Assembly: GCA_021811085.1 (NCBI GenBank)
Contig: JAJZPQ010000006.1
Location: 4,914 to 68,913, forward strand
DNA from: Pseudomonadota bacterium
Lineage (GTDB): Bacteria > Pseudomonadota > Gammaproteobacteria > Burkholderiales > SG8-39
DNA: 64,000 nt
Reading direction: 5' to 3'
The position numbers and the translations under genes are program-made. The notes below the pieces were generated by a model, which did not search any database, was not told the origin of the DNA, and saw only the letters and a list, made by a program, of their open reading frames with translations. Below are positions 31,314 to 58,789 of this stretch, in pieces. Numbering within the stretch: the first letter of the stretch is position 1; the number at the start of each line of letters is the position of its first letter.

Positions 31314-31334
31314 CATTTAAGGGAGTCCACCGCA

Positions 31335-31380: not shown

Positions 31381-31383
31381 GCG

Positions 31384-37750: not shown

Positions 37751-37844
37751 CGCGCCATCCCGGTTTATCGAGATTGTCTCAAGCCGGAAAAACGGAATCA
37801 AACAGGCTTGCCTGTTTTTCCATCCACTCTCTCCTGGAGGACGC

Positions 37845-38552: not shown

Positions 38553-38628
38553 GGCATAGGCACAGTTCCCCGGCAGACGCGAATTTGGCCAACACGGACA
38601 CCACAGTTTGAAACCGAGGCAAAAAAAC

Positions 38629-39894: not shown

Positions 39895-39996
39895 GGAGGA
39901 TCGCTACCTGCAGTCGCGACGAGGGGCCGTGCGCCGCCTATGTATCTGAACAGACGGCCGCATATCAGTCGCAATGGGACCAACGAGGACGACATC

Positions 39997-41532: not shown

Positions 41533-41541
41533 GGGATGCGC

Positions 41542-42882: not shown

Positions 42883-42918
42883 TCCCGTATCACCTAATAC
42901 ACATGGAGAACAAGCAAA

Positions 42919-43140
42919 ATGGCGACAGTGGAACTTAAGTCCGAGGTGACCGGAGCGGTCTGGCAGATCAAGAAGCAGCCGGGCGAGGTTGTCGCCGAAG
43001 GGGACATCGTTATGATTTTGGAGTCGATGAAGATGGAGATTCCAGTGATAGCGGAACAAGGGGGCACGCTCAAGGAACTGGTCGTGAAAGAGGGCGAGCC
43101 TGTGGCCGAGGGCCAGACCGTTGCGATCCTCGAAACCTAA
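42919..43140 (+). CDS. minimal biotin carboxyl carrier protein (biotinyl domain only, 73 aa)
   Basis: VMILESMKMEIPV carries the MKM biotinylation motif, with the Lys codon at 43030-43032. There is no N-terminal or linker region. Confidence 0.8.
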   Translation: MATVELKSEVTGAVWQIKKQPGEVVAEGDIVMILESMKMEIPVIAEQGGTLKELVVKEGEPVAEGQTVAILET

Positions 43141-43188
43141 CCCGGTATATCGGCGCTGTTTCATATCCAACTCTTCAAGGGTAATTAA

Positions 43189-44751
43189 ATGACGTGGTTA
43201 CCGGAAGCAGAAGAAATCGCATTGCGCCGCAAATGGGCGGAAGAACTGGGCGGGAAGGAGGCCATCGCCCGTCATCACGCACAGGGGCGACTTACGGTGC
43301 GCGAGCGAATTGGCGGCCTCGTGGATGCCGGTTCGTTCCAGGAAGTCGGCAAGCTGACCGGAAACGGCACTTACGTCGACGGCCAAGTCACAAAAGTGAC
43401 GCCGGCCCCTTACGTAATGGGGCTCGCCAGTGTCGACGGACGGTCAGTTGCAATAGGCGGCGAAGATTTTACCGTGCGCGGCGGCACCAGTTGGGGCGGT
43501 GATCGACGCAAAGGTGGTCAGGGCGGCTTCGTCGAGGACCTGGCTGCGCGGTATCGCATTCCATTGATCAATCTGATCGACGGCGCCGGCGGCACCGTAA
43601 CCTCGGCAAAGCGACGCGGCCACACTGTGTTCCCCGGCGTGGACGGGTACGAGCGCGCGGTGCAGTTGCTGGGAACGGTGCCGGTGGTCAGCGCGGTCAT
43701 GGGAACGGCGGCCGGCGGCCCGGCCGGGCGGGCGATACTGTCCCACTGGTCGGTGATGGTAAAGGGCTCGAGCCAGATTTTTGCTGCGGGTCCACCGGTC
43801 GTTGAACGCTCCTTGGGGCAAAAGGTGAGCAAGGATGAACTCGGTGGAACCCGGATGGCGGTTGACACTGCCGGCACCGTAGACAATGCGGCCGAAAGTG
43901 AGGAAGACGCCTTTCGTCTGATTCGGCGTTTTCTCAGCTACATGCCGCAGAACGTGTGGGAGCTGCCACCGGTTACGAGTTGCGATGATCCGGTGGACCG
44001 CCGCGAAGAGGCGCTGCTTAATCTGGTGCCGCGGGAGAGGCGGCAGCCGTACAACATGAAGAAACTGATCGAAATGGTGGCCGACCGGGGCTCGATATTC
44101 GAGATTCAACCTACTTTTGGCCGCGCCGTGATCACCTGCCTCGCGCGCATGAACGGAAAGGCAGTCGGCATCATCGCCAACAACCCCATGGTCTATGGTG
44201 GCGCAATGGACGTCAGGGCGGCGCGAAAGCAGATCCACTTCATCGAGTTGTGCGACACATTTCATATACCGCTCATTTTTCTTGTGGATCTGCCCGGGTT
44301 CATGGTTGGCATGCAGGCAGAGGCCGCGGCCACCTTGCGCGATGGCATGCGCGCCGTGTACGTAGGGCTGCAGGCAAGCGTGCCGATTCTCACCTTGGTG
44401 ATCCGCAAGTGCTACGGCATGGCAGGCATGGGCACGACCGACAAGAACGGTCTGGATTTCAAGATCGCCTGGCCATCGGCCGAATGGGGCTCGTTGCCGG
44501 TCGAAGGTGGTGTGGCGGCAGCGTTCAAGCGCGAGATTCAGAATGCTACAGATCCGGCGCAGCGACAAAAGGAGCTTGAGGAAGAGTTGCGCGAGTTGGA
44601 TTCGCCTTTTCTCACCGCCGAAGCGTTTGGCGTGGAGGACATCATCGATCCGCGCGAAACCCGACGCTATCTGTGCCGCTTCATTGACTTGGCGCAGGGG
44701 CGGCTCAAGACGGAAGTCGGCGTCAAACTGAAGACGGGTGTGCGCCCCTAA
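43189..44751 (+). CDS. acyl-CoA carboxylase carboxyltransferase subunit (12S/PccB-type), paralog B
   Basis: QGRLTVRERIGGLVDAGSFQEVG..DFTVRGGTS..GIIANNPMVYGGAMD..LVDLPGFMVG..WPSAEWGSLP. Length is 520 aa. Confidence 0.9.
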   Translation: MTWLPEAEEIALRRKWAEELGGKEAIARHHAQGRLTVRERIGGLVDAGSFQEVGKLTGNGTYVDGQVTKVTPAPYVMGLASVDGRSVAIGGEDFTVRGGTSWGGDRRKGGQGGFVEDLAARYRIPLINLIDGAGGTVTSAKRRGHTVFPGVDGYERAVQLLGTVPVVSAVMGTAAGGPAGRAILSHWSVMVKGSSQIFAAGPPVVERSLGQKVSKDELGGTRMAVDTAGTVDNAAESEEDAFRLIRRFLSYMPQNVWELPPVTSCDDPVDRREEALLNLVPRERRQPYNMKKLIEMVADRGSIFEIQPTFGRAVITCLARMNGKAVGIIANNPMVYGGAMDVRAARKQIHFIELCDTFHIPLIFLVDLPGFMVGMQAEAAATLRDGMRAVYVGLQASVPILTLVIRKCYGMAGMGTTDKNGLDFKIAWPSAEWGSLPVEGGVAAAFKREIQNATDPAQRQKELEEELRELDSPFLTAEAFGVEDIIDPRETRRYLCRFIDLAQGRLKTEVGVKLKTGVRP

Positions 44752-44924: not shown

Positions 44925-45935
44925 ATGAAATTTCCCAGATTGATTTCTTTGTTTTTCGTTGCGATTGTCACCCTCGCCGGAATGGCCGGAAATGCATCGG
45001 CTGAAGCGAGCGAAGTCAGGATCGCACTGCAGTTTGGTATTGGTTACTTGCCACTTACCGTAATGCAGCACGACAAGCTTATCGAAAAGCATCTCAAGGC
45101 TTCTGGCCTTGACAATACCAAAGTGGTTTGGTCAAAGACGGGTGCCGGGTCTGCGATGAACGATGCGTTGCTCGCAGGTCAATTGGACTTTGCCTCTGGC
45201 GGGATTCCGCCGTTTTTGCTGCTGTGGGGCAAGACTCGCGACAACCTTGACGTCAGGGGCGTGGGTGCATTGTGCTCGATGCCCAATTTCCTCAACACCA
45301 GCAATCCGAATATCAAATCGGTGAAGGATTTCACGGACAAGGACAGAATTGCGGTGGCCGGAGCTGGATCATCGGTTCAAACTGTTTATCTGCAGATGGC
45401 GGTTGCCAAGGCTTACGGGGACGCACACTATAACAAGCTCAACCCGATTATGGTAAAGCTATCCCATCCAGACGGCATGGTGGCGCTGCTATCGGGCCAG
45501 ACGATCGATGCCCAATTTACTTCGCCGCCGTTTCAGTACGAGGAGCTGGAACACCCTGGTATTCATAAGGTGCTTAGCTCATACGACGTAATGGAAGGGT
45601 CAAATAGTTTCCTCATGATGTGGGGTACGGGGAAATTCCGGAAGGAAAATCCGAAAACGTACCAAGCGGTCTTTGATGCCTTCAAGGAAGCCACCGAGTC
45701 GATTAATCAAGACAAAAAAAGAGCCGCCGAGATTTACGTAGAGAGTGTCAACGGAAAGGCCTCACTGGACAGTATCCTTAAGATGCTCAACGACCCGGAA
45801 ATCAAATATACCTTGGCGCCGGAAGGGATCATGCAATTCGTTCAGTTCATGAACAAAGTGGGTACCCTAAAGAGCAAGGCTGCGTCATGGAAGGATCTGT
45901 TTTTCCCCGAAGTCTATAACCTGCCTGGCAGCTAA
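44925..45935 (+). CDS. ABC transporter periplasmic substrate-binding protein (NMT1/NitT-TauT-like)
   Basis: Signal peptide MKFPRLISLFFVAIVTLAGMAGNASA. Length is 336 aa, and cognate ATPase and permease genes follow. Confidence 0.8.
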   Translation: MKFPRLISLFFVAIVTLAGMAGNASAEASEVRIALQFGIGYLPLTVMQHDKLIEKHLKASGLDNTKVVWSKTGAGSAMNDALLAGQLDFASGGIPPFLLLWGKTRDNLDVRGVGALCSMPNFLNTSNPNIKSVKDFTDKDRIAVAGAGSSVQTVYLQMAVAKAYGDAHYNKLNPIMVKLSHPDGMVALLSGQTIDAQFTSPPFQYEELEHPGIHKVLSSYDVMEGSNSFLMMWGTGKFRKENPKTYQAVFDAFKEATESINQDKKRAAEIYVESVNGKASLDSILKMLNDPEIKYTLAPEGIMQFVQFMNKVGTLKSKAASWKDLFFPEVYNLPGS

Positions 45936-45955
45936 CTGCAGCGAGCTGTAGTTAG

Positions 45956-45997
45956 AAAGGCGGGTTCGCCAGAGTCCGCCTTTCGTGGCTTTTTTTC
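45956..45997 (+). terminator. intra-operon hairpin / partial terminator after the binding-protein gene
   Basis: AAAGGCGG-(12 nt)-CCGCCTTT gives an 8-bp stem. A T7 run follows at 45990-45997, displaced by 6 nt. Confidence 0.4.
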
Positions 45998-46026
45998 AGC
46001 CGCGAGCCTTATAGAGGAGTGTGGAG

Positions 46027-46824
46027 ATGGACGAGGACCAAGGCGCGCTGCCCTTACTAAGCGTAAGCGACGTCACTTTGCAGTATAAGACCAAGGAGCA
46101 CCTGGTGACCGCCACTTACCGGGTGAGCTTCCAGGTGTTCAAATCGGACCGCTATGTCCTGCTGGGGCCTTCGGGCTGCGGCAAGTCGACGCTGCTGAAA
46201 GCCGTGGGTGGCTATCTCACCCCGGTGGAAGGCGCTATCCGCCTGAAAGGCGAGACAGTCACCAAGCCCGGTCCGGACCGGATGATGGTGTTCCAGGAGT
46301 TCGACCAGTTGCTTCCCTGGAAGACGGTGAAGCAGAACGTCATGTTTGCTCTCGTTTCGAGCGGTAAATACAAGGGTAAGGCCGCTGAAGACAAGGCGAT
46401 GCACTGCATCGAGAAGGTGAACCTCACCAAGTTCGCCAACAGCTTCCCGCACACGCTCTCAGGAGGCATGAAGCAGCGCGTCGCCATCGCCCGGGGAATG
46501 GCGATGGAGCCTGACGTGCTCCTTATGGACGAACCCTTCGCAGCGCTCGATGCCTTGACGCGCCGCAAGATGCAGGAAGAGCTCTTGCAGCTCTGGGATG
46601 ACATCCATTTCACCGTATTGTTCGTGACCCACTCGATCCCCGAGGCGGTCAAGATTGGCAATCGCATCCTGCTGCTCTCCCCCCATCCCGGTCAGGTCAA
46701 GGCTGAGTTGAACAGTAGCGGGCGCGACGAAGAAGACCCGGTGACCGGCAAGCGGCTTTCCGACCGCATCCACAACATGCTGTTTGCCGACGAGATCGAA
46801 GAGGAAGAGGTGACCCATGTCTGA
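46027..46824 (+). CDS. ABC transporter ATP-binding protein (NitT/TauT family)
   Basis: Walker A GPSGCGKST, signature LSGGMKQRV and Walker B LLMDEPF. An AGAGGAG RBS lies 7 nt upstream of the ATG at 46027. Confidence 0.9.
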   Translation: MDEDQGALPLLSVSDVTLQYKTKEHLVTATYRVSFQVFKSDRYVLLGPSGCGKSTLLKAVGGYLTPVEGAIRLKGETVTKPGPDRMMVFQEFDQLLPWKTVKQNVMFALVSSGKYKGKAAEDKAMHCIEKVNLTKFANSFPHTLSGGMKQRVAIARGMAMEPDVLLMDEPFAALDALTRRKMQEELLQLWDDIHFTVLFVTHSIPEAVKIGNRILLLSPHPGQVKAELNSSGRDEEDPVTGKRLSDRIHNMLFADEIEEEEVTHV

Positions 46825-47686
46825 CTTACAAGTGCAACGCGCGGAGTTCGTGCGGGAACAGGTGGAAATGAGCGCGTTCGGCGTGGTGGAGAAGCCCCTC
46901 ACTGTCTGGGAGAAGGTCTTCAACCGGGACGAAGTGCGCAAGGGGCTCATCCTGGTGGCACTCGCCGTGATCTGGCAGGCCTACGCCGCCCACCTCAACA
47001 ACCCGCTACTTTTCCCCACCTTCAGTTCGACCATAGAGGCCCTGTGGGACCACATGGTGAACGGCAGCCTGCTCACCAAAGCGTGGTTCTCCATCAAGGT
47101 GCTGCTCATGGGTTACGCCGCAGGGGTCGTGCTGGCCACTTTGCTCACCATGGTCGCGATCACCTCCCGCCTGGGCAACGATTTTCTGGAAACACTGACC
47201 GCGATGTTCAACCCCCTGCCGGCCATAGCGCTGCTGCCCTTGTCCCTCATCTGGTTCGGGCTGGGCAACGGCAGCCTCATCTTCGTTCTGATCCACTCGG
47301 TGCTGTGGCCGGTAGCGCTGAACACTCACTCCGGGTTCATGTCGGTGTCCAACACCATGCGCATGGTTGGGAGAAACTACGGCCTTGGCGGGTTCCGCTA
47401 CGTTTCCAAGATCCTGATCCCGGCGGCGTTCCCCAACATTCTCGCGGGATTGAAGATCGGCTGGGCGTTCGCCTGGCGGACCTTGATTGCCGCCGAGCTC
47501 GTGTTCGGTGCGACCTCCGGGTCGGGGGGCTTGGGCTGGTTCATCTACGAGAACAAGAACGAGCTCGAAATCCCCAGCGTGTTCGCCGGGCTGTTCACCG
47601 TGATCCTCATCGGCCTCATCGTAGAGAACCTGATCTTTCGCAATATCGAGCACAGGACCGTGCGCAAGTGGGGAATGCAGAACTGA
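46817..47686 (+). CDS. ABC transporter permease (NitT/TauT family)
   Basis: 289 aa with 6 predicted TM segments and an EAA-like loop (WAFAWRTLIAAELV). Overlaps the ATPase stop by 8 nt. Confidence 0.85.
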   Translation: MSDLQVQRAEFVREQVEMSAFGVVEKPLTVWEKVFNRDEVRKGLILVALAVIWQAYAAHLNNPLLFPTFSSTIEALWDHMVNGSLLTKAWFSIKVLLMGYAAGVVLATLLTMVAITSRLGNDFLETLTAMFNPLPAIALLPLSLIWFGLGNGSLIFVLIHSVLWPVALNTHSGFMSVSNTMRMVGRNYGLGGFRYVSKILIPAAFPNILAGLKIGWAFAWRTLIAAELVFGATSGSGGLGWFIYENKNELEIPSVFAGLFTVILIGLIVENLIFRNIEHRTVRKWGMQN

Positions 47687-47806: not shown

Positions 47807-49876
47807 TTAATTGCGTGCCGGTTCAACGCCGGTATCAGCATGTCGCGGCTCTTGGCAAAGCATCGCGCCGCTTTCGTGCAATTTCACTGACCAGTTAGGC
47901 GGTACTACAGAGGTACCGCCTGCCTCTTCCACTATGGCGGGCCCGCTAAACGTGAACTCGGGCTCCAAGGCTTCGCGTAGGTAGACCGGACAGTCGACCC
48001 ACCCGTCGAACCACACGGAGCGCCGTTCGATCAGTGGCTTCCCGCCCTGCGCAGGCTTGTATTTGAGCTGTGGTTTGTCGACGTCGCCGAGGGAGACCAG
48101 GCGGATATTGACGATTTCCACGTCGTGTTCGACAGAGGAATAGCCGAAGTTCTCCTTATGGCGGGCATGAAATGCTTCGCGTAGTGGCGCCCAATCCCTG
48201 TCGGTGGGGTTCCATTCGATCGGAAGCGTAAACGACTGCCCGACGTAGCGAAGGTCGAGCGAGTACGTGTGGCGATGCCGGTGTACGGAGATGCCGTCAC
48301 CCAACAGGAGTTTCTCCGCCGATTCGCGCAGACAGGCGGCGCGTGCTTTCAACTCCTCAATGCCTAGAACGCTCAACTTTCCGCCAGAAGCAAGGACGAA
48401 ATCCCGGTGGATATCGGCCAGCATCTGGCCAAGTGCGCAAAGGTGGCCAGGTAAGCGGGGAATCATCACGCGCGCTATGCCCAGTTCCTCGGCGACATGG
48501 AAGATGTGCATCGGTCCCGCGCCACCATATCCGACCAAGGTAAAGTCCCGCGGATCGAATCCGCGGTGAACTGAGACCTCGCGCACTGCGCCGGCCATTT
48601 TCGTAACTGCGATGCGTAACGCGCCGTCGGCTAGTGCAACGATGTCCGGAACTCGCAATTCTTCGGCAATGTTGCGGAATGCCCGCTCGGCGTGTCCCTT
48701 GTCAAGCTTTAGACCGCCGCTGATTGGGCGCCGGGTGGGCAGCCGGCCGAGGATCAGGTTGGCATCCGAGATGGTCGGTTGGTTGCCGCCGCGACCATAG
48801 CAAGCCGGGCCAGGTACTGCACCGGCGCTTTGTGGGCCGATCTGGAGCGTTCCGTCTGCGCCGATCCAGATGATTGAGCCTCCTCCTGCACCGATGGCAT
48901 GGATGTCAAGCTGTGGCATCTGGAGCGGGTAGGCGTCGATCTGGTTGTCGTAGGACATGAGCGGTTTGAGTGCGTGCACGAGTGAAACATCGGTGCTTGT
49001 GCCCCCCATATCAAACGTGATGATGTTGGCAATTCCGGCAAGCTCGGCGACCCGAATTGCGCCGCTAACGCCGCCGACCGGCCCCGAGAGGAACGTGCCG
49101 GCCACACATTGCGAGGCCGCTTGCAGTGTCATCGCTCCGCCGTTGGAGCCCATGATGTTTACAGGTGCTACGACGCCGCGTTCTTTTAGCGCAGCAGTTA
49201 GGGTGCGGAGGTATTCCACCATCAGGGGCGTAAGATAGGCGTTCAGTACGCAAGTGGACGTACGCTCGAACTCTCCACGTTCGCGAACCAGCGCAACGGA
49301 CTGGGATATCGCAGCTTCGGGCATCAGTCTTTGCAATGCGGCAGCTGCCGCAGTTTCGTTAGTGTCGTTCATAAAGCTGTTGATGAACGCCACTGCGATT
49401 GACCGTATGCCCTTTCGGCGGAATTCATCGACGATCGGCACTAGTTCAGCTGCATCGATTTCGCGCTGGATCACGCCTGCAGCAGTCGCTCGTTCAGACA
49501 CCTCAAAGCGTAGATCTCGCGGCACGATCGGTGCCGGCCGTTGCCACACGATATCGAACAGACCTCCGATTAGCCGGCGTCCCTTGCCGATTTCAAGAAC
49601 GTCCCGGAAACCGCGCGTTGTGACCAGACCGGTTGGCGCTCCCTTGCGCTCGAGCAGTGCGTTCGTCGCGATAGTAGTGCCATGAACGAACGCCCGAATT
49701 GAATCCGGGGCGATGCCAAGCGCTGCCAATGCGTCGAGGACCCCTCGCCATTGCTCGCCGGGCAGCGAAGGGACCTTTGCGGCAAGAAGCTCTTGTTCTG
49801 CCGCGTTGAATGCCAGGACGTCCGTAAATGTGCCGCCGACATCGATTCCGACGAGATAAGTAGGACGAATCCCCAT
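47807..49876 (-). CDS. hyuA: hydantoinase/oxoprolinase family protein, A (HyuA-type) subunit
   Basis: YLVGIDVGGTFTDVLAF..FDMGGTSTDVSLV shows the ASKHA-fold ATPase motifs. Length is 689 aa. Confidence 0.9.
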   Translation of the reverse strand: MGIRPTYLVGIDVGGTFTDVLAFNAAEQELLAAKVPSLPGEQWRGVLDALAALGIAPDSIRAFVHGTTIATNALLERKGAPTGLVTTRGFRDVLEIGKGRRLIGGLFDIVWQRPAPIVPRDLRFEVSERATAAGVIQREIDAAELVPIVDEFRRKGIRSIAVAFINSFMNDTNETAAAAALQRLMPEAAISQSVALVRERGEFERTSTCVLNAYLTPLMVEYLRTLTAALKERGVVAPVNIMGSNGGAMTLQAASQCVAGTFLSGPVGGVSGAIRVAELAGIANIITFDMGGTSTDVSLVHALKPLMSYDNQIDAYPLQMPQLDIHAIGAGGGSIIWIGADGTLQIGPQSAGAVPGPACYGRGGNQPTISDANLILGRLPTRRPISGGLKLDKGHAERAFRNIAEELRVPDIVALADGALRIAVTKMAGAVREVSVHRGFDPRDFTLVGYGGAGPMHIFHVAEELGIARVMIPRLPGHLCALGQMLADIHRDFVLASGGKLSVLGIEELKARAACLRESAEKLLLGDGISVHRHRHTYSLDLRYVGQSFTLPIEWNPTDRDWAPLREAFHARHKENFGYSSVEHDVEIVNIRLVSLGDVDKPQLKYKPAQGGKPLIERRSVWFDGWVDCPVYLREALEPEFTFSGPAIVEEAGGTSVVPPNWSVKLHESGAMLCQEPRHADTGVEPARN

Positions 49877-49892
49877 AAAGAAGATGCTCTCT

Positions 49893-51902
49893 CTATTCGG
49901 GTAGGACGGAGACCGCCCGGATCTCGGCCATGGTTCCCGGCGCGGCGTTCAGTACGGCCAGCCCGCGTGGGCCGATGTGTAGCGCAGTGCCATTGTCCTG
50001 TAAGCAGGCCCAACCTCGAAGGGCAGAGGCCGACGTGCTGGCCACCAGTTCGACCAGTGCACCATTGGCTACACCGAGTCGGGCGGCGAACTCACCGGAA
50101 AATTCGAAGCGCCGGCGCGGGCCGTCGTACACGTCGGTCTCAGCTTGCTCAAGCAAGATGCGGACGCGGTCTTTTCTCAGCTGCTCGCGCTCGGCGGTTG
50201 TACCCTCAGCATCCGCACGTCCCTCTTGACTCAGCACAACCCCAAAGCGGCGCCGCGCGTGCTCCGCCGTGAGGTAGCCGAGCGCGACGTCCGACTCTAC
50301 TCTGCCGACATCGCGTAGCAGAGGGTCGCCGTAGCCCCCGCCCCCTGCGGTCTCGATCCGCACGATGTCTCCCTGCTGAAGTGCGAACCCACCGACCTTC
50401 CCGGGAATGGGGGATGGGTCGATTACCATTCCGTCGCGTAAGACGATGAACCGGTTGCCTGCGCCGCTTTTGGCGGTCGCCGTGCCGAACGGCGGAATAA
50501 CACACTTGTCGGCAAGGACCGAAAGGCTTGCGTTTTTGCTTAGAATGCGCAGGTCACGCCGAATTCCGCAGCCGCCGCGGAACTCGCCGTCGCCGCATGA
50601 CCCTTCCCGGATGCCGTACTGCACCACTTCCACGGGACATTGGGATTCCACTACCTCGACCGCCCACACGGCGTTGAAATCGCCTTCGGAATAGGCGCGT
50701 ACGCCATGGTTTCCGTCGAACCCGCGCGTCGCTCCGGTCCCGCCTGCCGGATACTCGTACATGAGGAAAAGGCTGCTGTCCTCGAGCAGACCAGAGAGGT
50801 ATACATGATTGGCGCCGCCTTTCAGGTCGCCAACGCGCTTATTGGGCAGCGCGAGCCCGAGGGCGGAGACTACGAGTGAAGAGAGCAGTGCCCGGCATTC
50901 GACCATTCCGCCGCAAGGGGCGGGTAGTGTCGCGTTAAGAAAGCTTCCGGCCGGATTGACTATTTCCAGGGAATTGAAGGAGCCGTGATTGACTGGCGTG
51001 TAGGGGTCAAGGAATGCCTTGACCATGGTCGCCACCGCGTTGAACGCCATTGCGGGGCCGACATTAATCGGCCCCCTGGTTTGCGGGGAGGATCCGGTGA
51101 AGTCAGCAATCAGCCGATCGCCCGTTACAGTCATCTTAAGCCGTCCAACCAAGGGATCCGGGCTATGGCCGTCGCTGTCCATGTAGCCCTCGGCATAATA
51201 GGTGCCGTCAGGCACCTCTGCGATGCGTTGGCGCATGACCCGCTCAGCGCGAGCGATGAGTTCATCGATCCCTGAGAGTAGTTTTTCGCCGCCAAAGCGC
51301 CGAAAAAGCCGCCGCAGGTGCTCCGCTGCCTTACGCGAAGTCCCGAGCATCGTGTTGAAATCGCCCTTACGCTCGTGGGGGATGCGCATATTCGCGAACA
51401 GCAGGTCAAGAAATGCCTCGTTCATCCGGCCGCTCTCACAGATGCGAGTCGGAACGATCCGTAGTCCCTCTTGATAGATTTCTTTCACCCGGCCGGAAAG
51501 GCTGCCGGGAGTCATGCCTCCCACGTCGCCCCAGTGGCACCGGACCGCGGTAAAAAGCGCCAAGCGTCCCTCGAGAAACACAGGGTAAAGCATCAGCACA
51601 TCGTTCAGGTGTGTGCCACCCGTGTAGGGATCGTTGTGCAGGAAGATGTCGCCTTCGTTGATATCGTTGCCAAAGCGTTTCACGACTTCGGCGGTCGAAT
51701 AGGGAACGGCGAAGATATGAAGCGGATTATCGTCCAGACTTTGCGCGACCAGCCTGCCGTCTGCAGCAACCAGCCCACAAGAGAAGTCGTGGCCCTCGTA
51801 GATGATTGACGAATACGAACTATGGATTACGTTCGCGCGCATCTCGTTGACAACCGCCACGAGCGACTCGCGGATTAGTTCAAGACGTCCTAGTTCGTTC
51901 AT
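49893..51902 (-). CDS. hyuB: hydantoinase/oxoprolinase family protein, B (HyuB-type) subunit
   Basis: LIRESLVAVVNEMRANVIHSSYSSIIYEGHDFSCGL..NDPYTGGTHLNDV. Length is 669 aa. Confidence 0.9.
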   Translation of the reverse strand: MNELGRLELIRESLVAVVNEMRANVIHSSYSSIIYEGHDFSCGLVAADGRLVAQSLDDNPLHIFAVPYSTAEVVKRFGNDINEGDIFLHNDPYTGGTHLNDVLMLYPVFLEGRLALFTAVRCHWGDVGGMTPGSLSGRVKEIYQEGLRIVPTRICESGRMNEAFLDLLFANMRIPHERKGDFNTMLGTSRKAAEHLRRLFRRFGGEKLLSGIDELIARAERVMRQRIAEVPDGTYYAEGYMDSDGHSPDPLVGRLKMTVTGDRLIADFTGSSPQTRGPINVGPAMAFNAVATMVKAFLDPYTPVNHGSFNSLEIVNPAGSFLNATLPAPCGGMVECRALLSSLVVSALGLALPNKRVGDLKGGANHVYLSGLLEDSSLFLMYEYPAGGTGATRGFDGNHGVRAYSEGDFNAVWAVEVVESQCPVEVVQYGIREGSCGDGEFRGGCGIRRDLRILSKNASLSVLADKCVIPPFGTATAKSGAGNRFIVLRDGMVIDPSPIPGKVGGFALQQGDIVRIETAGGGGYGDPLLRDVGRVESDVALGYLTAEHARRRFGVVLSQEGRADAEGTTAEREQLRKDRVRILLEQAETDVYDGPRRRFEFSGEFAARLGVANGALVELVASTSASALRGWACLQDNGTALHIGPRGLAVLNAAPGTMAEIRAVSVLPE

Positions 51903-51953
51903 TGGTGGGTTCGTGTTTGCCGAGGATTCGAACGTGCGGGGGAGGAACCCCGT

Positions 51954-53291
51954 TCAGAGTCGGGTCACCTTGCCAGCATCGATCAAGTCCTTTACCGCGC
52001 CCGCAAACGCTTCTAGCGTCGGGTCAATATCAGCGTCCGTGTGGGCGAGCGAAGTGACTCCGCCGGTGTACGACATAAAATCGACGCCGCGCTTGCGAAG
52101 GCCGCAGGTATAGACATCGAGCGCGTCGCGCTTCATCGAGCGAATCGCGTCGGGGGGAACCTGGTCGATAATGGAGCGTCGGGCATGCTGCCCAAAGTAG
52201 ACGTGGAAGGTTGAAGCTTCGCCATAAACGATGGCATCGACTTGCAGTTGGTCTAGCACCCGTTGCATGCCGGCACGCAGCTGGGCAGCAATGCGGTTTG
52301 CCTGACGGTGGGGCTCACCGGTGCGGATAACTTTAAGGGCCGCCACCGCGGCAGCCGATACTATGGGGCTCGCGTTAAACGTGCCGCGGTGGATGATGGG
52401 TGGCTTGAATCCTTCGATCTCTTGCCTCGGGTCTAGCAGCCGCATAATCTCAGCGCTGCCACCGATCGCGCCGCCGGGCATGCCGCCGGCCACAATCTTC
52501 GCCATGGTCGTCATGTCAGGCTTGATACCGAGCAATGCCTGCTTGCCACCAGGACTCCAGCGGAACCCCGTGATTACCTCGTCGAAGATCAGGACGCAGT
52601 CGTAGCGGTCGCAGAGTGTGCGCAAGGCTCTCAGGAGCTCGTCGGCGATGGGAACGCTGCCCCAGTTAGCGCCTGACACCTCGCAGATCACGGTGCCGAT
52701 CTGTCGATCGGCCTTGAGCCTACTTTCGACCTGATGCGCGTCGGTCGGGCACACCACCATAGTTTCCCGTATGCAATCAGGAACACCCAGCGTGGGAATC
52801 CGGTCGTACGGTGTCTTCATACCTTGGACGACGTAGTCGTGCCAGCCGTGGAAGTGGCCCTCGAAACGCAGGACCTTCGGGCGCTTCGAGTAGGCGCGCG
52901 CGACGCGAAGTGCGAGCATCGTTGCCTCGGTTCCGGACGCGACGAAGCGCACGCGCTCGGCTGAGGGCACGAGTTCCTGTACCAGTTCAGCCCATTGAAT
53001 TTCGAGCGGGTGGACCGTCGCGAAGAACGTGCCCTCGCTCGCCTGTGACACGAGTGCCGCAACAACGTCTGGATGTGAATGGCCGAGCATCATCGCGGCG
53101 CTTCCCATTGCGTAGTCGATGTACTCGCGTCCCTCGACGTCCCATTTCCGCGCGCCTCGGGCGCGGCTGAAATAGGCGGGATACGGTGGTAAGAAGCGCC
53201 CGTCGTGCGAGACACCGCCTGCGAGGGAGATCTGTGCGCGCTCCCAGAGCTCCCTAGACGAAAGGCTCCTCACGTCCACGTTTGCGTTCAT
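51954..53291 (-). CDS. class III (omega-type) aminotransferase, glutamate-1-semialdehyde aminomutase-like
   Basis: GREYIDYAMGSAAMMLGHSHP..ASGTEATMLALRVAR..FDEVITGFR..TMAKIVAGGMPGG (PLP Lys). I chose the ATG at 53291, which has a GGAG RBS. Confidence 0.85.
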   Translation of the reverse strand: MNANVDVRSLSSRELWERAQISLAGGVSHDGRFLPPYPAYFSRARGARKWDVEGREYIDYAMGSAAMMLGHSHPDVVAALVSQASEGTFFATVHPLEIQWAELVQELVPSAERVRFVASGTEATMLALRVARAYSKRPKVLRFEGHFHGWHDYVVQGMKTPYDRIPTLGVPDCIRETMVVCPTDAHQVESRLKADRQIGTVICEVSGANWGSVPIADELLRALRTLCDRYDCVLIFDEVITGFRWSPGGKQALLGIKPDMTTMAKIVAGGMPGGAIGGSAEIMRLLDPRQEIEGFKPPIIHRGTFNASPIVSAAAVAALKVIRTGEPHRQANRIAAQLRAGMQRVLDQLQVDAIVYGEASTFHVYFGQHARRSIIDQVPPDAIRSMKRDALDVYTCGLRKRGVDFMSYTGGVTSLAHTDADIDPTLEAFAGAVKDLIDAGKVTRL

Positions 53292-53417
53292 CCCAGTTCT
53301 CCTTGACAATAAACAAGTACGTGGTTTTGGCTGGTTTGCAGGAATGTCGACATTTATGCAGAGTGCCACAACTTTGTGGAACAGGCAATTGCAGAAGCGA
53401 AAATGGGAGGAGACTCA

Positions 53418-54173
53418 ATGGATCTTCAGTTGCGGGGAAGGGTCGCAGTGGTTACCGGGGCCAGCGCGGGAATCGGGCGAGGTATCGCGTCCGTCCTAGC
53501 GCTTGAAGGCGCGCAGACCGTGCTTGTAGCACGCCGCGCTTCGCTGCTTGAGCAGCTTGCAGAGGAGATTGCGCAGTCCAAAAGTCCCACGCCATTAGTA
53601 ATCTTGGCTGATCTGCGGGACCGCGAGGCACCGCGACGCGTGGCGGAGGAGGTGCTGATGAAGTTTGGGCGCACGGACATATTGGTAAACAACGCTGGGG
53701 GGTCAAGACCTCTGTCAATCGATGCCAACGACGATCTTTGGGAGGAAGCGTTGAGCGTAAATTTCACCGCTGTTCGGAAGATGGCTCAGGCGCTACTTCC
53801 CGCTATGCGGGCGCGGCGTTGGGGTCGGATAGTCAACATCACGGGGTCCTTGGAGCCGAGGACCGTCAACGGAGCGAACGTTGCTAAGGCGGGCGTGCAT
53901 GTATGGGCGAAGGGCCTTGCCTGCGACGTGGCGAAGGAGGGCATTACCGTGAACTGCATCGGCCCAGGGCGCATTCATAGCGAGCAAATTGACGAGCGCA
54001 TGCATCCTACGCCAGAGAACCAGGCCGCATTCGCTGCACTCAACATACCGATGGGCTATTTCGGCGACCCTGAAGACATCGCCTACTTGGTCGCTTACTT
54101 GTCCTCCGAAAAGGCGCGCTATATAACGGGACAAAGTCTGTACGTAGATGGAGGCATGCACCGCGCTATCTGA
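53418..54173 (+). CDS. SDR family oxidoreductase
   Basis: RVAVVTGASAGIGRGIA is the TGxxxGxG motif, with LVNNAGG. A Y/K catalytic region lies in AKAGVHVWAKGLA. Confidence 0.85.
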   Translation: MDLQLRGRVAVVTGASAGIGRGIASVLALEGAQTVLVARRASLLEQLAEEIAQSKSPTPLVILADLRDREAPRRVAEEVLMKFGRTDILVNNAGGSRPLSIDANDDLWEEALSVNFTAVRKMAQALLPAMRARRWGRIVNITGSLEPRTVNGANVAKAGVHVWAKGLACDVAKEGITVNCIGPGRIHSEQIDERMHPTPENQAAFAALNIPMGYFGDPEDIAYLVAYLSSEKARYITGQSLYVDGGMHRAI

Positions 54174-54955: not shown

Positions 54956-55047
54956 TATAGAGGCTGATACTATTTTGCCCTAATGTCGACATTATGGCAG
55001 AATGAACTAGAGACTTTACGCAAATCACCAACAGGAGGGTTCAGCAT

Positions 55048-56745
55048 ATGTCCAGCATGTCTGGAGGAAAGGCCGTCGTCGAGTCGCTTCGGGCCGAAGG
55101 CGTAAAGGACGTATTCGGACTCATCGGATCTGCGGGAATGGAGATCTTCGATGCGCTCTACGATGCTCGCGACATTCGATTCATTGGGGTTCGCAACGAA
55201 TGCACTGGCACCCATATGGCAGACGGTTATGCGCGGGCCTCAGGCCGCGCCGGGGTGATTATCGCCGGGCAGAACGGTCCGGGAGCGACGAATCTAGTCA
55301 CTGGCCTGGCGCAGGCATACGCGGCCTTTTCGCCGGTGGTGGCCCTAGCCGGGTCGCTGTCCTCAGCGCATATCTATCGCGATGCTTTCCAGGAGGTCGA
55401 TCAGCAGGCGCTGTTTCGGCCGATCACCAAGAAGACCTGGACTGCTACGCAGTCGGCAAGGCTTCCTGAAATGATGCGAGAGGCGTTCCGCACGGCGCTG
55501 ACACCGCGTTGCGGACCAGTCGCGTTGAACCTTCCGCGGGATCTTCTTGCTGAGGTGGTTGAGATTGCCGAGATCTTTGGTCCGAGCGGGCGCGAAGCCA
55601 TGGGCCGCTCGGCAGGCGATTGGGAGTTGATCGAGCAAGCGGCGCAGCTGTTAGCTGGTGCGAAGAAGCCGCTTATTATCGCTGGGGGCGGGATTAAGAA
55701 CGGGCGGTATCACCGCGAGTTGCTGGCGCTCGCGGAGTTGCTGAAGGCACCTGTCGCTTTGTCGCCCGGGCACGGCGATGCGTTGCCCTGTACCCATGAA
55801 CTGTATGCTGGCCAAGTAGGCCCGCGGGGCAATGCCGTCGCTTCGGCGCTTGCGCTCGAGGCCGACGTCATTCTTGCCATCGGTACACGGCTCGGTTTCA
55901 ACACTACGTTCTACTCTTGGGACAACCTGAATCGATCGGCGAAGATAATTCAGGTGGACATTGAGCCCACTGCCGTGGGTCGATTCTTCCCGGTCGAGAT
56001 CGGAATCGAAGGTGACGCCGGCCGCGTGGCGGTCGCACTGACCCGGGCGCTATCGAGCCACAAGGCCACGGCTTCTGTCGAGTGGACGAAAACCTTCATG
56101 GCAAAGCGCAAGGTTCTTCTCGCCGAGCGGGAGGCGACTGCGGCGGAGGCGGGCGGGTCTCCTATCCAACCGGCCGCGCTCTTCGCGGCGTTACGAGTCG
56201 CGCTCCCAGATGACACGATGTTCACCGTGGATGCAGGGACGCTATGCCTGCAGGCAACTGACCAGATGCTCTATCGTCACCCGCCCGCGCTGTTTTCCCC
56301 GCTTGACTTTGGGCTGGTTGGTTTCTCCTACGCGGCCGGGCTCGGGATAAAGATCGCCTGCCCGGAACGCACGGTGGTCAGTCTGATGGGCGACGGCGGC
56401 TTCGGCATGACACTTGGCGAGATCGGCACGGCTGTCTCTAATGGCATCAACACAGTCTGCATTGTAATGAACAACGGCTGCTGGGGCGCTGAGAAGTCCT
56501 ATCAGAAGGACTTTTTCGGCGAGCGCTACATCGGCGCCGACGTGCCCAATCCGCCCTACGATAAGGTCGCCGAACTCTATGGTGCGAAGGGTTACCGCGT
56601 CGAGCGAACCGAACAAATAGCGCCTATGGTTCGCGCGGCCGTGGAGTGTGGCAAGCCAGCTATTGTGGACATCCAGGTTGACCCCGCCGCGCTCTACAGC
56701 TTTCGCCGGGATTCCTTTAAGCACAGGGACAAGGCAGCCAAGTGA
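55048..56745 (+). CDS. thiamine-diphosphate-dependent enzyme (acetolactate synthase large-subunit-like family)
   Basis: N-terminal Pyr domain (GVRNECTGTHMADGYARASGR). C-terminal TPP motif GDGGFGMTLGEIGTAVSNGINTVCIVMNNG (GDG-X-NN). Confidence 0.85.
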   Translation: MSSMSGGKAVVESLRAEGVKDVFGLIGSAGMEIFDALYDARDIRFIGVRNECTGTHMADGYARASGRAGVIIAGQNGPGATNLVTGLAQAYAAFSPVVALAGSLSSAHIYRDAFQEVDQQALFRPITKKTWTATQSARLPEMMREAFRTALTPRCGPVALNLPRDLLAEVVEIAEIFGPSGREAMGRSAGDWELIEQAAQLLAGAKKPLIIAGGGIKNGRYHRELLALAELLKAPVALSPGHGDALPCTHELYAGQVGPRGNAVASALALEADVILAIGTRLGFNTTFYSWDNLNRSAKIIQVDIEPTAVGRFFPVEIGIEGDAGRVAVALTRALSSHKATASVEWTKTFMAKRKVLLAEREATAAEAGGSPIQPAALFAALRVALPDDTMFTVDAGTLCLQATDQMLYRHPPALFSPLDFGLVGFSYAAGLGIKIACPERTVVSLMGDGGFGMTLGEIGTAVSNGINTVCIVMNNGCWGAEKSYQKDFFGERYIGADVPNPPYDKVAELYGAKGYRVERTEQIAPMVRAAVECGKPAIVDIQVDPAALYSFRRDSFKHRDKAAK

Positions 56746-58367
56746 ACGAATCGATTTTTGACTACGTGGTCATTGGTTCCGGGTCTGCCGGTGCGGCTCT
56801 CGCAGCCCGGCTTACGGAGAGCGGTCGGCACCGCGTCCTAGTTCTTGAGGCGGGCGGCGAAGGCCGCAACATTTGGATTCACGTCCCACTAGGTGTCGGA
56901 AAGCTGCTGAACAACGAGCGGTATGTATGGAAATTTCAGACGGAACCTCAGGCGACTTTGCATGGGCAAAGCATCTACTCACCGCGCGGCAAGGTACTTG
57001 GGGGGTCGAGTGCGCTAAATGGCATGGCCTATGTTTGGGGCGATCCGACGGAATTTGATAGCTGGCGCGAGAAAGGTTGCCGGGGATGGGGCTTCTCCGA
57101 CGTGCTGCCCTACTTCCGGCGGATGGAGGCCAACCTCTTTAGTAAGCAGGTCGGGCGCGGTCGGGAAGGGCCGATGCGCATTACGGACCGTGCGGTCCGC
57201 GATCCTGATGCCCTATCGGATGCCTTTGTACGCTCCTGCGGCGAGGCTGGAATTCCGCCGACGGCCGACTACAATGTGGGTTCCTATGAAGGAGTACGCT
57301 ACCTCGAGCAGACGGCCTTTAACGGGCGCCGCTGGAGCACGGCAGTAGCCTACCTTGGGGCGGCGCGTCGCCGGCAGAACCTCACCATCGAGACCCTCGC
57401 GCAGGTCTGCCGTGTGGTATTCGAAGGAACCCGTGCCGTTGGCGTCGAATACGTGAAGCACGGCGAGAAGCGCACGGTGCGCGCGGCTCGCGAAGTTCTG
57501 CTTTGCGCTGGTGCGATCCAATCGCCGCAATTACTGGAGCTTTCTGGCATAGGGGATGCGGCACGGCTGCAGCAGCTCGGAATTCCGGTCGTCGCTCATA
57601 GTCCAAACGTCGGCGAGAACATGATTGATCACCTGCAGGTACGGTGCACGTACCAGACAACCTTGCCAATCACCATCAATGACATCATGCGAAGCGCTTG
57701 GCACCGCATGCGCGTGGGCCTGCAGTATCTCGCATATCGCAAGGGTCTATTAGCGGGAACGTCATCCACCGCTCATGCGATTACCCGGTCCAGCGCGTCG
57801 CTTTCGCGTCCGGACGTGATGGTGCGAATCTATCACATCAGCGGCAAGGACAGGTACTCACGCTCGCCAGGCCAGGGTATCGATCCGTTCTCGGGTTTCT
57901 CGATCGGTGGATTCAAGCTCTATCCGGAGTCGCGTGGCTTCTGCCACATCGACTCGCCTGACCCGCTAGTACATCCACGCATACAGCCGAATTATCTGGT
58001 GAGCGAGGGCGACCAAAATACCGCGGTAGCGCTCCTGCGTCTGATCCGGAACATCGCCGCGCAGCCCTCCCTGAGCGAACTGATCGTTAAGGAGCATCGA
58101 CCTGGTCCTGCGACAACTGAAGACGCGGCGTTGCTGGAATACATACGCGAATCGGGCCAGACGGCATGGCACACAGTCGGAACCTGCGCTATGGGAGGCG
58201 CGCCCGATTCCGTCGTCGACGAGCGACTCCGAGTGCGCGGCGTTGAGGGTCTGCGAGTTATTGACATTTCCGTTATGCCCACTATTGCCTCATCCAACAC
58301 TAACGCGCCCGCCATCATGATTGGTGAAAAAGGCGCCGATCTGGTCGCCGCAGACGCGCGTGTCTGA
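56742..58367 (+). CDS. GMC family FAD-dependent oxidoreductase (choline dehydrogenase-like)
   Basis: FDYVVIGSGSAGAALAARL forms the GxGxxG FAD fold, with the GMC signature GGSSALNGMAY and a C-terminal active-site region (HTVGTCAMG). Overlaps the upstream stop (GTGA). Confidence 0.9.
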   Translation: MNESIFDYVVIGSGSAGAALAARLTESGRHRVLVLEAGGEGRNIWIHVPLGVGKLLNNERYVWKFQTEPQATLHGQSIYSPRGKVLGGSSALNGMAYVWGDPTEFDSWREKGCRGWGFSDVLPYFRRMEANLFSKQVGRGREGPMRITDRAVRDPDALSDAFVRSCGEAGIPPTADYNVGSYEGVRYLEQTAFNGRRWSTAVAYLGAARRRQNLTIETLAQVCRVVFEGTRAVGVEYVKHGEKRTVRAAREVLLCAGAIQSPQLLELSGIGDAARLQQLGIPVVAHSPNVGENMIDHLQVRCTYQTTLPITINDIMRSAWHRMRVGLQYLAYRKGLLAGTSSTAHAITRSSASLSRPDVMVRIYHISGKDRYSRSPGQGIDPFSGFSIGGFKLYPESRGFCHIDSPDPLVHPRIQPNYLVSEGDQNTAVALLRLIRNIAAQPSLSELIVKEHRPGPATTEDAALLEYIRESGQTAWHTVGTCAMGGAPDSVVDERLRVRGVEGLRVIDISVMPTIASSNTNAPAIMIGEKGADLVAADARV

Positions 58368-58381: not shown

Positions 58382-58789
58382 ATGCCGAAAAAGAAGCAAC
58401 CGAAGACCCCTCATACCGATGCACAGAGAAAAACCGGGGACTGGAATCCACTGTGGAACACATTCGCCGAATGGGATCCCGAGTTCCTTGAGGCCTATCT
58501 GCGCCTACGGAACGTGCCGATTGAAAACGGGCCGCTTCCGAAGAAAATCAAGGAGTTAATTCTGGTGGCGATCAATGCAGCCACCACTCACTTGTATGCG
58601 CCCGGGGTGCGCCGGCATATTCGTAATGCGCTGCAGCATGGCGCAACTCGGGAAGAGATTCTGGAGGCGATCGAGCTGACGACGGTGTTAGGTATCCATT
58701 CGAGCAACATTGCAATTCCGATTCTCGCCGAAGAGCTCGCCGAAAGGGCTAAAAAAGGGCCCGCAAAAAAAAGACTTGGAAAGATATAG
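58382..58789 (+). CDS. carboxymuconolactone decarboxylase (AhpD-like) family protein
   Basis: 135 aa. WDPEFLEAYLRLRNVPIENGPLPKKIKELILVAINAATTHLY is typical of the CMD domain. Confidence 0.75.
   Translation: MPKKKQPKTPHTDAQRKTGDWNPLWNTFAEWDPEFLEAYLRLRNVPIENGPLPKKIKELILVAINAATTHLYAPGVRRHIRNALQHGATREEILEAIELTTVLGIHSSNIAIPILAEELAERAKKGPAKKRLGKI

Follow-up and report, generated by a model that had tools for sequence, protein, structure and literature searches.

An operon that joins a class-III aminotransferase to a distinct HyuB–HyuA pair: a candidate ATP-dependent cyclic-amide hydrolase module in a burkholderial genome

To our knowledge, the only ATP-dependent lactamases known are caprolactamase, OplBA, 5-oxoprolinase, the hydantoinases and NmpAB. 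Caprolactamase catalyzes an ATP- and bicarbonate-dependent hydrolysis of caprolactam. Its genes, capAB, are clustered with those of a class-III omega-aminotransferase and a dehydrogenase in Pseudomonas jessenii (PMC6061476), and nmpAB, for N-methylpyrrolidone, is clustered with the gene of an amino-acid oxidase (PMC6987047). The ASKHA motifs of the A subunit (DxGGTxTD, DxGGT and GxxPGP) and the Asp-His-Asp-His metal tetrad of the B subunit have been defined (PMC8453981). Here we describe a hyuB–hyuA gene pair (hyuBA) of the hydantoinase/oxoprolinase superfamily, which lies next to an aminotransferase (AT) gene in a 64-kb stretch of contig JAJZPQ010000006.1 from a burkholderial Pseudomonadota bacterium; this whole stretch is referred to as the window. 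We propose with moderate confidence that HyuBA hydrolyzes a cyclic amide at the expense of ATP and that the AT deaminates the product, that a thiamine diphosphate (ThDP, or TPP) enzyme, a short-chain dehydrogenase/reductase (SDR) and a GMC-family oxidoreductase act afterwards, and that a GntR-type regulator controls all of these genes through the palindrome AATGTCGACATT. The genes of the trio and their positions are as follows.

51954-53291, minus strand: class-III pyridoxal-phosphate aminotransferase (AT), similar to glutamate-1-semialdehyde aminomutase (GSAM) and D-phenylglycine aminotransferase (D-PhgAT); 445 aa, first gene of the operon
49893-51902, minus strand: HyuB-type metal/hydrolysis subunit; 669 aa, of which residues 6-527 (50322-51887) form the catalytic domain
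49914-50165, minus strand: C-terminal double-psi beta-barrel (DPBB) domain of HyuB, approximately residues 580-663, from the predicted structure
47807-49876, minus strand: HyuA-type ASKHA ATPase/substrate-activating subunit; 689 aa

The original prediction for this region had placed AT, HyuB (669 aa) and HyuA (689 aa) in this order on the minus strand, and the list of open reading frames (ORFs) and the Pfam matches agree with it, as they do with the gaps of 51 nt between AT and HyuB and 16 nt between HyuB and HyuA. The AT ORF spans 51954-53369 on the minus strand, which is longer than the likely gene. Because an AAGGAG Shine-Dalgarno sequence precedes the ATG at 53291, and because gene prediction on identical public contigs arrived at the same length of 445 aa, this ATG is most likely the start. 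A 121-nt convergent spacer bounds hyuBA on one side and the AT gene on the other. A promoter/terminator scan of 47.4-55.2 kb was uninformative, giving fewer matches than were found in shuffled sequences. AT-hyuB-hyuA is confirmed as a real three-gene operon, and the adjacency of AT and HyuBA is not due to chance, since the trio recurs in 10 related loci and in two gene orders.

HyuA and HyuB show the domain architecture of the superfamily, with all Pfam matches exceeding the gathering cut-offs: HyuA matched PF05378 (Hydant_A_N), PF01968 (Hydantoinase_A) and PF19278 (Hydant_A_C) with 158, 312 and 40 bits, respectively, and HyuB matched PF02538 (Hydantoinase_B) with 492 bits over residues 6-527. 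The nucleotide motifs of HyuA, aligned to CapA, are intact (D12VGGTFTD, D289MGGT and G352AVPGP). The metal tetrad of HyuB is also intact (D39/H98/D101/H123), as assigned by motif position and not by direct alignment to CapB, and the block HNDPY..GxTH..D was aligned to the N-methylhydantoinase structure 7hk5. In the PDB, HyuA scored 400 bits against the caprolactamase alpha subunit (CapA, 6yra_A), with which it aligns end to end, and 384 bits against N-methylhydantoinase; among the carboxylases, it scored 266 and 147 bits against two subunits of acetophenone carboxylase and 198 bits against acetone carboxylase. The corresponding values for HyuB were 230 bits (N-methylhydantoinase), 212 bits (caprolactamase beta subunit, CapB), 135 bits (acetophenone carboxylase) and 64 bits (acetone carboxylase). 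The best NCBIfam models were those of CapA and CapB (NF050156/NF050157), with 504.9 and 269.0 bits against an equivalog cut-off of 1000 bits each, and both subunits were far under the Apc equivalog cut-offs of 1250-1500. The PDB and NCBIfam scores thus place the pair on the hydrolase side of the family, as an orthologue of neither solved hydrolase, and the NCBIfam scores, at half or less of the cut-offs, indicate that it is not a caprolactamase orthologue. Judged by its sequence, HyuBA is probably not a caprolactam or valerolactam enzyme, and it represents a distinct, previously uncharacterised subfamily of HyuAB in which the B subunit is fused to a DPBB domain. The literature on hydantoinase/hyuAB with aminotransferase, sulfoacetaldehyde or lactam was searched, and the cluster was not found described there.

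The extension that distinguishes HyuB begins where the similarity to the solved hydrolases stops. Alignments of HyuB to CapB and to N-methylhydantoinase (7hk5) end at residues 572-573; neither of these proteins has the DPBB domain, and the extension of HyuB amounts to about 95 residues. These C-terminal residues are kept in all 120 homologues listed (650-726 aa, 67-98% identical), and conservation is much weaker here (32-62% identity, nine residues invariant) than in the catalytic part. An AlphaFold (AF2) model of the domain, built on the homologue alignment, had a pLDDT of 89.9, and Foldseek matched it in the PDB to the DPBBs of VAT/p97 N-domains, to designed DPBBs and to FwdD (E 3e-6 to 1e-4, TM 0.6-0.77). 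The modeled domain is accordingly described here as having a predicted double-psi beta-barrel fold. Pfam gave nothing for the HyuB C-terminus at E<=0.01, and a sequence search of 1.84 billion representatives retrieved 53 relatives of the domain, mostly short or fragmentary proteins; for these reasons the domain appears to be essentially private to this HyuB subfamily.

The superfamily also contains ATP-dependent carboxylases of the acetone/acetophenone type, with which the metal site and the ATP motifs are held in common. If HyuBA were such an enzyme, AT, as the first gene of the operon, would act first and convert an amine to a ketone or aldehyde, which HyuBA would carboxylate to a beta-keto acid, the precursor of a CoA ester. 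The DPBB domain could replace the missing small subunit, a benzoate-CoA-ligase-like gene stands beside hyuB in a marine group of relatives, and the island that surrounds the operon comes with CoA-transferase or CoA-ligase genes as well as with many genes for carboxylases. However, the similarity to carboxylase subunits is much below that to the hydrolases, no gamma- or epsilon-type subunit gene was found in the window (the gene lists of related contigs agree), and no carboxylase chain is among the 50 Foldseek matches listed for the DPBB domain. Moreover, the DadA-like and class-IV aminotransferase partners seen in relatives act on alpha-amino acids, and the resulting 2-oxo-acids are unfit for such chemistry. 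We therefore regard a carboxylase as quite improbable.

AT carries PF00202 (Aminotran_3, 187 bits) and scored under the cut-off of every NCBIfam model: the GSAM subfamily NF000818 (319 against 398), hemL TIGR00713 (298 against 527) and GntE (259 against 525). The first two of these comparisons speak against a function as glutamate-1-semialdehyde 2,1-aminomutase (HemL). The nearest solved relatives are D-PhgAT (2cy8, 265 bits, with an alignment that covers only residues 41-394) and the GSA aminomutases (~220 bits), followed at a greater distance by beta-phenylalanine aminotransferases (~149 bits) and GabT (~129 bits), and the 6-aminohexanoate aminotransferase of P. jessenii (PjAT) was absent from the PDB matches at E<=1e-20. 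According to these matches, AT is not an omega-transaminase of the GabT, DavT or PjAT type, and the claim of the original prediction that the pairing was exactly that of the lactam pathways is not supported. Literature on D-PhgAT provided no usable specificity determinants for AT. D-PhgAT feeds a ThDP-dependent decarboxylase in its own pathway, and by analogy the adjacent ThDP enzyme might play a similar part after AT. A clade 59% identical to AT occurs without hyuBA, divergent from the gene of a dimethylformamidase-like (DMFA2_C) protein (loci L088/L089/L090, ~1500-12500), so that an amide hydrolase is again found next to this kind of AT. The same three loci contain an Amdase-like gene, a gamma-glutamyltransferase gene and a D-glutamate cyclase gene 6-9 kb off, among several transposases.

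One genome per GTDB species was scanned, and 291 relatives were found; the best 80, all from metagenome-assembled genomes (MAGs), were 57-83% identical. The context of the window proteins was mapped in these best 80 of the 291, 52 of which were well flanked (at least 5 kb on both sides). A deaminating enzyme was encoded within 6 kb of hyuBA in 30 of the 52 well-flanked loci and in 41 of the 80 overall, the kinds being a GSAM-like class-III AT, a class-IV AT and a DadA-like dehydrogenase. AT, HyuB, HyuA and the ThDP enzyme were kept together in 10 loci, with AT 54-83% identical, in the two gene orders mentioned above.

Islands of this kind (class A) comprise AT, HyuB, HyuA, SDR, GntR and ThDP genes, usually with GMC, CMD and TRAP DctPQM genes, and often with genes for a PrpD-like protein, a biotin carrier, an OadA-like carboxyltransferase and a lactonase-like metallo-beta-lactamase (MBL), as well as an acyl-CoA carboxylase with a CoA ligase or transferase. 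They were found in Betaproteobacteria (L001, L002, L003, L011/L084 (Caldimonas), L032 and L034) and in Alphaproteobacteria (L047, L060 and L074), where the order is ThDP-GntR-HyuB-HyuA-AT-DadA-like. The GntR, GMC and CMD genes are conserved with the island, and the ThDP copies, 65-87% identical in all complete island loci, lie directly upstream of hyuB in the alphaproteobacterial versions. The SDR gene is present in nine of the 10 island loci (58-84% identity) and directly follows hyuA in Caldimonas, Variovorax and other Burkholderiales; in L060, no SDR gene was found within 6 kb of hyuBA, and a 55%-identical match lies ~9 kb upstream. The PrpD-like, biotin carrier and OadA-like genes recur in L001, L060 and L084. 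The DAO-family gene that follows AT in L060 passes the NCBIfam model for D-amino-acid dehydrogenase (DadA-like; 479 against a cut-off of 383). Searching with AT led to a cultured host, Variovorax defluvii (GCA_039541515.1, contig BAABGJ010000058.1), with the arrangement dctPQM-AT-hyuB-hyuA-SDR-MFS-MBL and adjoining GntR, ThDP, GMC and CMD genes; in Variovorax, as in other Burkholderiales, AT-hyuB-hyuA comes straight after dctPQM.

Class B consists of ~21-25 marine Rhodospirillales-like loci, in which a benzoate-CoA-ligase-like gene is divergent from HyuB-HyuA and a different GSAM-like AT (33% identical to the window AT) follows within 50-140 nt. Downstream of this AT are the genes of a 231-aa protein, which has no Pfam or NCBIfam match, and of a PcaC-like CMD protein, and the vicinity holds an alanine dehydrogenase gene (often) and an Asp/Glu/hydantoin-racemase-family gene. 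In class C, the order is HyuB-HyuA-DAO-SDR, and a gamma-glutamyltransferase gene is upstream in two loci (L010 and L014 only). A few loci form a class-IV variant, with a class-IV AT gene directly upstream of hyuB. Among the plasmids of PLSDB, no member of the subfamily was found: the matches were all <38% identical and lacked the C-terminal domain.

Several features of individual loci were recorded in addition. The 231-aa protein (L042 15460-16161, with paralogues in ~21 loci) has an internal duplication; in the marine hyuBA operons it is always encoded between the AT and CMD genes, and a second copy often lies a few kb away. In L018, L019, L021 and L030, which are gammaproteobacterial MAGs, HyuB matches to residue ~632, and its C-terminal domain has either diverged or been lost; a biotin carboxylase gene and an OadA/PycB-like gene come after HyuB-HyuA there, with no deaminating enzyme at this place. 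A second, distant HyuB/HyuA pair (32-34% identical, with a HyuB of ~514 aa that lacks the extension) is convergent to the first in L002 (9009-12397) and L003 (14084-17712). The Caldimonas locus L084 has the order AT-HyuB-HyuA-SDR-GMC-CMD-MBL(lactonase-like)-TauE at 8649-18592; no other locus has a TauE/SafE-type exporter, and the genes of a DmsABC-like molybdoenzyme are adjacent.

The gamma-glutamyltransferase genes that adjoin hyuBA in the two class C loci, and the racemase-family genes near the marine operons, would suit a 5-oxoprolinase (L- or D-specific) or an ATP-dependent (N-methyl)hydantoinase, whose amino acid product would be removed by the neighboring AT. D-specific partners would likewise suit D-glutamate released from 5-oxo-D-proline, and N-methylhydantoinase is the best PDB match of HyuB, although this similarity amounts to only ~230 bits over 560 residues. 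Against such a function, no N-carbamoyl-amino-acid amidohydrolase, creatinine or sarcosine gene was present in the annotated island loci, D-glutamate cyclase was sought in the hyuBA loci and none was found, and glutamate requires no dedicated ThDP/SDR/GMC regulon. Within the window, the annotated ORFs include no carbamoylase, no gamma-glutamyl-cycle gene and no acetone-carboxylase gamma subunit, just as the original prediction had noted. In view of the context and of the lack of a carbamoylase gene, an oxoprolinase or hydantoinase is considered unlikely.

The genes around the operon in the window and the two copies of the palindrome are as follows.

53343-53354: perfect 12-nt palindrome AATGTCGACATT, located between AT and SDR, which start divergently; predicted operator of the GntR/FadR type
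53418-54173, plus strand: SDR, 251 aa, divergent from AT; PF13561 and PF00106
54221-54955, minus strand: GntR/FCD-family regulator; PF00392 and PF07729; predicted to bind both palindromes
54982-54993: second copy of AATGTCGACATT, between the divergent GntR and ThDP starts
55048-56745, plus strand: ThDP (TPP) enzyme, Xsc/acetolactate-synthase-like; Pfam TPP N, M and C domains; first gene of a long plus-strand operon
56742-58367, plus strand: GMC flavoprotein oxidoreductase (Pfam); similar to choline dehydrogenase/alcohol oxidase in the PDB
58382-58789, plus strand: CMD-family protein (Pfam)
58848-60197, plus strand: MmgE/PrpD-family protein
60211-60705, plus strand: biotin carrier (BCCP)
60706-62196, plus strand: OadA/PycB-type carboxyltransferase
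62256-63257, plus strand: TRAP DctP; best PDB match the isethionate-binding IseP (175 bits)
63327-63863, plus strand: TRAP DctQ
44925-47686, plus strand: NitT/TauT-type ABC transporter (SsuA-like binding protein, ATPase and permease), convergent with hyuA

Exact AATGTCGACATT occurs only twice in the 64-kb window, in both cases in a divergent promoter region: the first site precedes the AT and SDR starts by 52 and 64 nt, respectively, and the second precedes the GntR start by 27 nt and the ThDP gene by 55 nt. When up to two mismatches were allowed, 7 matches were found in the window against 1.6 expected. The AATGTCGACATT core is present at the AT/SDR-equivalent intergenic position in L001, L002, L003 and L084, sites equivalent to the GntR/ThDP copy are present in L001, L003 and L084, and a TGTCGACA core lies upstream of dctP in L087, L084, L032 and L034. 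Operators of the form T.GT..AC.A are typical of the GntR/FadR family; AATGTCGACATT fits this form and is located in the promoters of the regulator gene and of the predicted target operons. Its occurrence in both divergent promoters places AT-hyuBA, SDR, GntR and the ThDP-GMC-CMD-PrpD-BCCP-OadA-DctPQM operon in one predicted regulon, and the GntR protein is predicted to control the whole set via AATGTCGACATT. No copy was found at the SsuA-like ABC transporter or at the CoA-transferase/carboxylase operon. The SDR, TPP and carboxylase genes that the original prediction saw next to the trio are real according to the annotation, and its link to the SDR and TPP genes gains from the synteny in relatives and from the shared operator. 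A second GntR/FCD regulator is encoded at 37740-38552 on the plus strand, upstream of an operon (38608-44751) for a CoA-transferase, a carboxyltransferase, a biotin carboxylase, a BCCP and a carboxyltransferase; the region upstream of it (37374-37740) contains different palindromes, TTGTCAACAA and TTGTTGACAA...TGTCAAC, which resemble a motif that precedes hyuB and the ThDP gene in L060, an alphaproteobacterial locus.

The operator also bears on whether AT and hyuBA might belong to separate pathways that merely share a catabolic island, as could be argued from the 22 of 52 well-flanked loci without a nearby deaminating enzyme and from the 59%-identical AT clade that occurs without hyuBA. That clade, however, adjoins another amidase, the dimethylformamidase-like protein; three kinds of deaminating enzyme have been recruited to the same position, with gaps of 16-140 nt; and the adjacency outlasts rearrangement across two proteobacterial classes. 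Because the adjacency survives rearrangement and the operator is common to AT-hyuBA and the island genes, a fortuitous arrangement is very unlikely.

The best NCBIfam match of the ThDP enzyme was sulfoacetaldehyde acetyltransferase, under the cut-off (441 against 620; also 424 against 676). On identical public contigs, the operon runs past the end of the window into genes for DctM and for a second ThDP enzyme and an Amidohydro_2 gene. When DctP was compared with IseP, the ligand contacts R156, R177, S95, N98 and W200 were kept, and Y153, N217 and H244 were not. The nearest solved relatives of DctP bind isethionate or small hydroxy-acids. No aldehyde dehydrogenase was found in the predicted regulon, and the only one in the window is 40 kb away. 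A family-III CoA-transferase, best matched by succinate-glutarate CoA-transferase, is encoded 9 kb from hyuBA. The link of the ABC transporter (44925-47686) to the hyuBA module is weak; a similar transporter adjoins hyuBA in L007 and is further off in L004.

This gene content allows a caprolactamase/valerolactamase-type function to be weighed, in which HyuBA would act on an unsubstituted omega-lactam (2-pyrrolidone, delta-valerolactam or epsilon-caprolactam) and AT would yield a semialdehyde. CapA and CapB are the best NCBIfam matches, the cluster of capAB with an aminotransferase is a precedent, the succinate-glutarate-like CoA-transferase is only 9 kb away, and the lactonase-like MBL genes and the GMC enzyme would fit a parallel lactone/hydroxy-acid branch. 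Yet the scores are half or less of the equivalog cut-offs, HyuB is as near to N-methylhydantoinase as to CapB, AT is far from GabT- and PjAT-type enzymes, the regulon contains no semialdehyde dehydrogenase, and DadA-like and class-IV partners occur in relatives; furthermore, TRAP transporters carry organic anions, and neutral lactams would need none. Plain caprolactam and valerolactam are disfavored by the sub-threshold scores, the type of AT, the missing semialdehyde dehydrogenase and, in Burkholderiales, the co-operonic TRAP genes, and we give an omega-lactam only a low probability.

Our preferred reading, that of a cyclic-amide hydrolase coupled to deamination, would proceed as follows. By analogy with the chemistry of caprolactamase (PMC8453981), activation of the amide oxygen would take place in HyuA at the cost of ATP, and the intermediate so formed would pass to the metal site of HyuB and be hydrolyzed there. 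The released amino acid would then be deaminated by the co-transcribed GSAM/D-PhgAT-like AT, and the oxo product would go on to the ThDP enzyme, the SDR and the GMC oxidoreductase, all of them co-regulated. We infer that the reaction is hydrolysis rather than carboxylation, and likewise the order of steps and the substrate; the coupling of ring opening to deamination is suggested by synteny and by analogy with two precedents, capAB and nmpAB.

As to the substrate, our best guess is a small lactam that bears an acid group (carboxylated, possibly sulfonated) and is neither caprolactam nor valerolactam; the lactam possibly gives a D- or racemic alpha-amino acid. The presence of the TRAP genes in the same operon in Burkholderiales suggests an anionic substrate, and an acid-bearing lactam that leads to an alpha-amino acid is a reasonable guess in view of the relatives of DctP and of the D-PhgAT-like, DadA-like and class-IV partners. 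A link to organosulfonates is possible, prompted by the IseP-like DctP, the Xsc-like ThDP enzyme, the GMC enzyme and TauE in Caldimonas; against it, the scores are under the cut-offs, the IseP contacts are kept in part, and TauE occurs in one lineage only. The lactam-opening module of the original prediction is partly supported, by the hydrolase-side scores, the recurrent deaminating partners and the capAB and nmpAB precedents, and it is corrected on one point: with 505 and 269 bits against a cut-off of 1000, the pair does not qualify as an orthologue of caprolactamase. In addition, the regulon has no aldehyde dehydrogenase, and the DadA-like and class-IV partners and the TRAP genes point to an acid-bearing lactam that gives an alpha-amino acid at least as much as to a plain omega-lactam.

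Several points weigh against the preferred reading. A nearby deaminating enzyme is missing from 22 of the 52 well-flanked loci, AT differs from the type used in known lactam pathways, and the predicted regulon lacks an aldehyde dehydrogenase. The CMD, PrpD-like and biotin-carboxyltransferase genes are not accounted for, and the DPBB domain has no assigned role in the proposed mechanism. Because the carboxylases of the family share the fold, the motifs and the metal site, sequence alone cannot settle the matter of carboxylation; gene order is silent on whether AT acts before or after HyuBA; and the literature holds no biochemical account of any member of this HyuBA subfamily.

A more far-reaching proposal, which we put forward tentatively and with some doubt, is that HyuB(DPBB)-HyuA founds an unrecognised, widespread route for a natural acid-bearing lactam. 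Ring opening would consume ATP, deamination of the amino acid (possibly a D-amino acid) would follow, and the ThDP enzyme would take over from there; the DPBB domain would serve this enzyme family as a new element for substrate gating or subunit coupling. Relatives were found in ~290 GTDB species genomes, which range from Burkholderiales of soil and freshwater to Rhodospirillales of marine origin. ATP-dependent lactamases are few and are sought for the mild hydrolysis of stable lactams and for the recycling of nylon monomers, and the present subfamily is distinct in sequence, carries a new domain and is common in uncultured Proteobacteria, including marine lineages. The identity of the substrate would add a reaction to carbon and nitrogen turnover as well as a new biocatalyst. 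The question can now be put to the test, because Variovorax defluvii is a host in culture, the operator of the predicted regulator is defined, and the binding protein lends itself to ligand screening. Nothing in this analysis overturns existing knowledge of the hydantoinase/oxoprolinase family; what is new, as far as sequence comparison goes, is a HyuAB subfamily with a DPBB domain, habitual deaminating partners and a conserved catabolic island that is apparently under a single regulator.

Other parts of the window contain features of separate interest. The stretch 39940-44751 encodes a biotin carboxylase and a biotin carrier of 73 aa (42919-43140) between two PccB/MmdA-like carboxyltransferases (530 and 520 aa), which are paralogues; this two-carboxyltransferase acyl-CoA carboxylase arrangement is unusual, and parts of it adjoin the island in L032, L047, L074 and L087. 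A biotin cluster (BioC-like methyltransferase, BioD, BioF-like and BioB) at 32288-37373 on the minus strand adjoins the island, which is rich in biotin enzymes. The BioF ORF is 805 aa in length, and only residues 463-800 match a family; its first 386 codons have no Pfam match and form the most G+C-rich stretch of the window (0.695), so that the ORF is perhaps over-extended or hides another gene. At 29483-31815, between gltX and the biotin operon, a group-II-intron-type reverse transcriptase (RVT_1, 585 aa) is followed by an IS200/Y1 transposase. A 669-aa ORF at 19922-21931 on the plus strand, with a coding-like GC3 of 0.74, and a 258-aa ORF at 28345-29121 had no Pfam match at E<=0.01. The genes at 10768-19812 form a cbb3 oxidase cluster of the usual kind (ccoN/P, fixG-like), together with those of an Fnr/Crp-type regulator, a radical SAM protein similar to HemN and DsbD_2, and are unrelated to hyuBA.

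Among the known systems, the caprolactamase CapAB of P. jessenii (6YRA) is the closest in several respects: it has the same B-then-A gene pair, ATP motifs and Asp-His-Asp-His site, it is the best NCBIfam match and the best (HyuA) or second-best (HyuB) PDB match, and it is also clustered with a class-III aminotransferase. The window pair differs from it in scoring 505 and 269 bits against 1000 and in the additional ~95-residue DPBB domain of HyuB. The pathway partners of caprolactamase, namely a PjAT-type aminotransferase and a 6-oxohexanoate dehydrogenase (PMC6061476), were not found here; the window AT is of another subgroup (GSAM/D-PhgAT-like), no 6-oxohexanoate-type dehydrogenase is present, and the regulon has a different content (ThDP, GMC, SDR, CMD and TRAP genes). 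N-methylhydantoinase, a fused A-B protein (7HK5), is the best PDB match of HyuB (230 bits) and the second of HyuA (384 bits), a similarity that is no greater than that to caprolactamase, whereas the window subunits are separate and carry the DPBB extension, and carbamoylase, creatinine and sarcosine genes are absent. The Acx/Apc carboxylases have homologous subunits, the same metal ligands and ATP-dependent substrate activation, but the similarity is lower (64-266 bits, as compared with 212-400 bits to the hydrolases), gamma/epsilon-type subunits are missing, and the context in the window is one of deamination and not of ketone metabolism. D-PhgAT (2CY8) and GSA aminomutase are the nearest solved relatives of AT, yet AT is under every NCBIfam cut-off. 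The nmpAB system for N-methylpyrrolidone, with nmpC (amino-acid oxidase) and nmpF, differs from the window in that the latter has an AT in place of the oxidase and lacks a succinate-semialdehyde dehydrogenase. The two nevertheless share the logic of ATP-dependent lactam opening followed by oxidative deamination, which is mirrored by the relatives in which HyuB-HyuA is followed by a DAO-family oxidoreductase.

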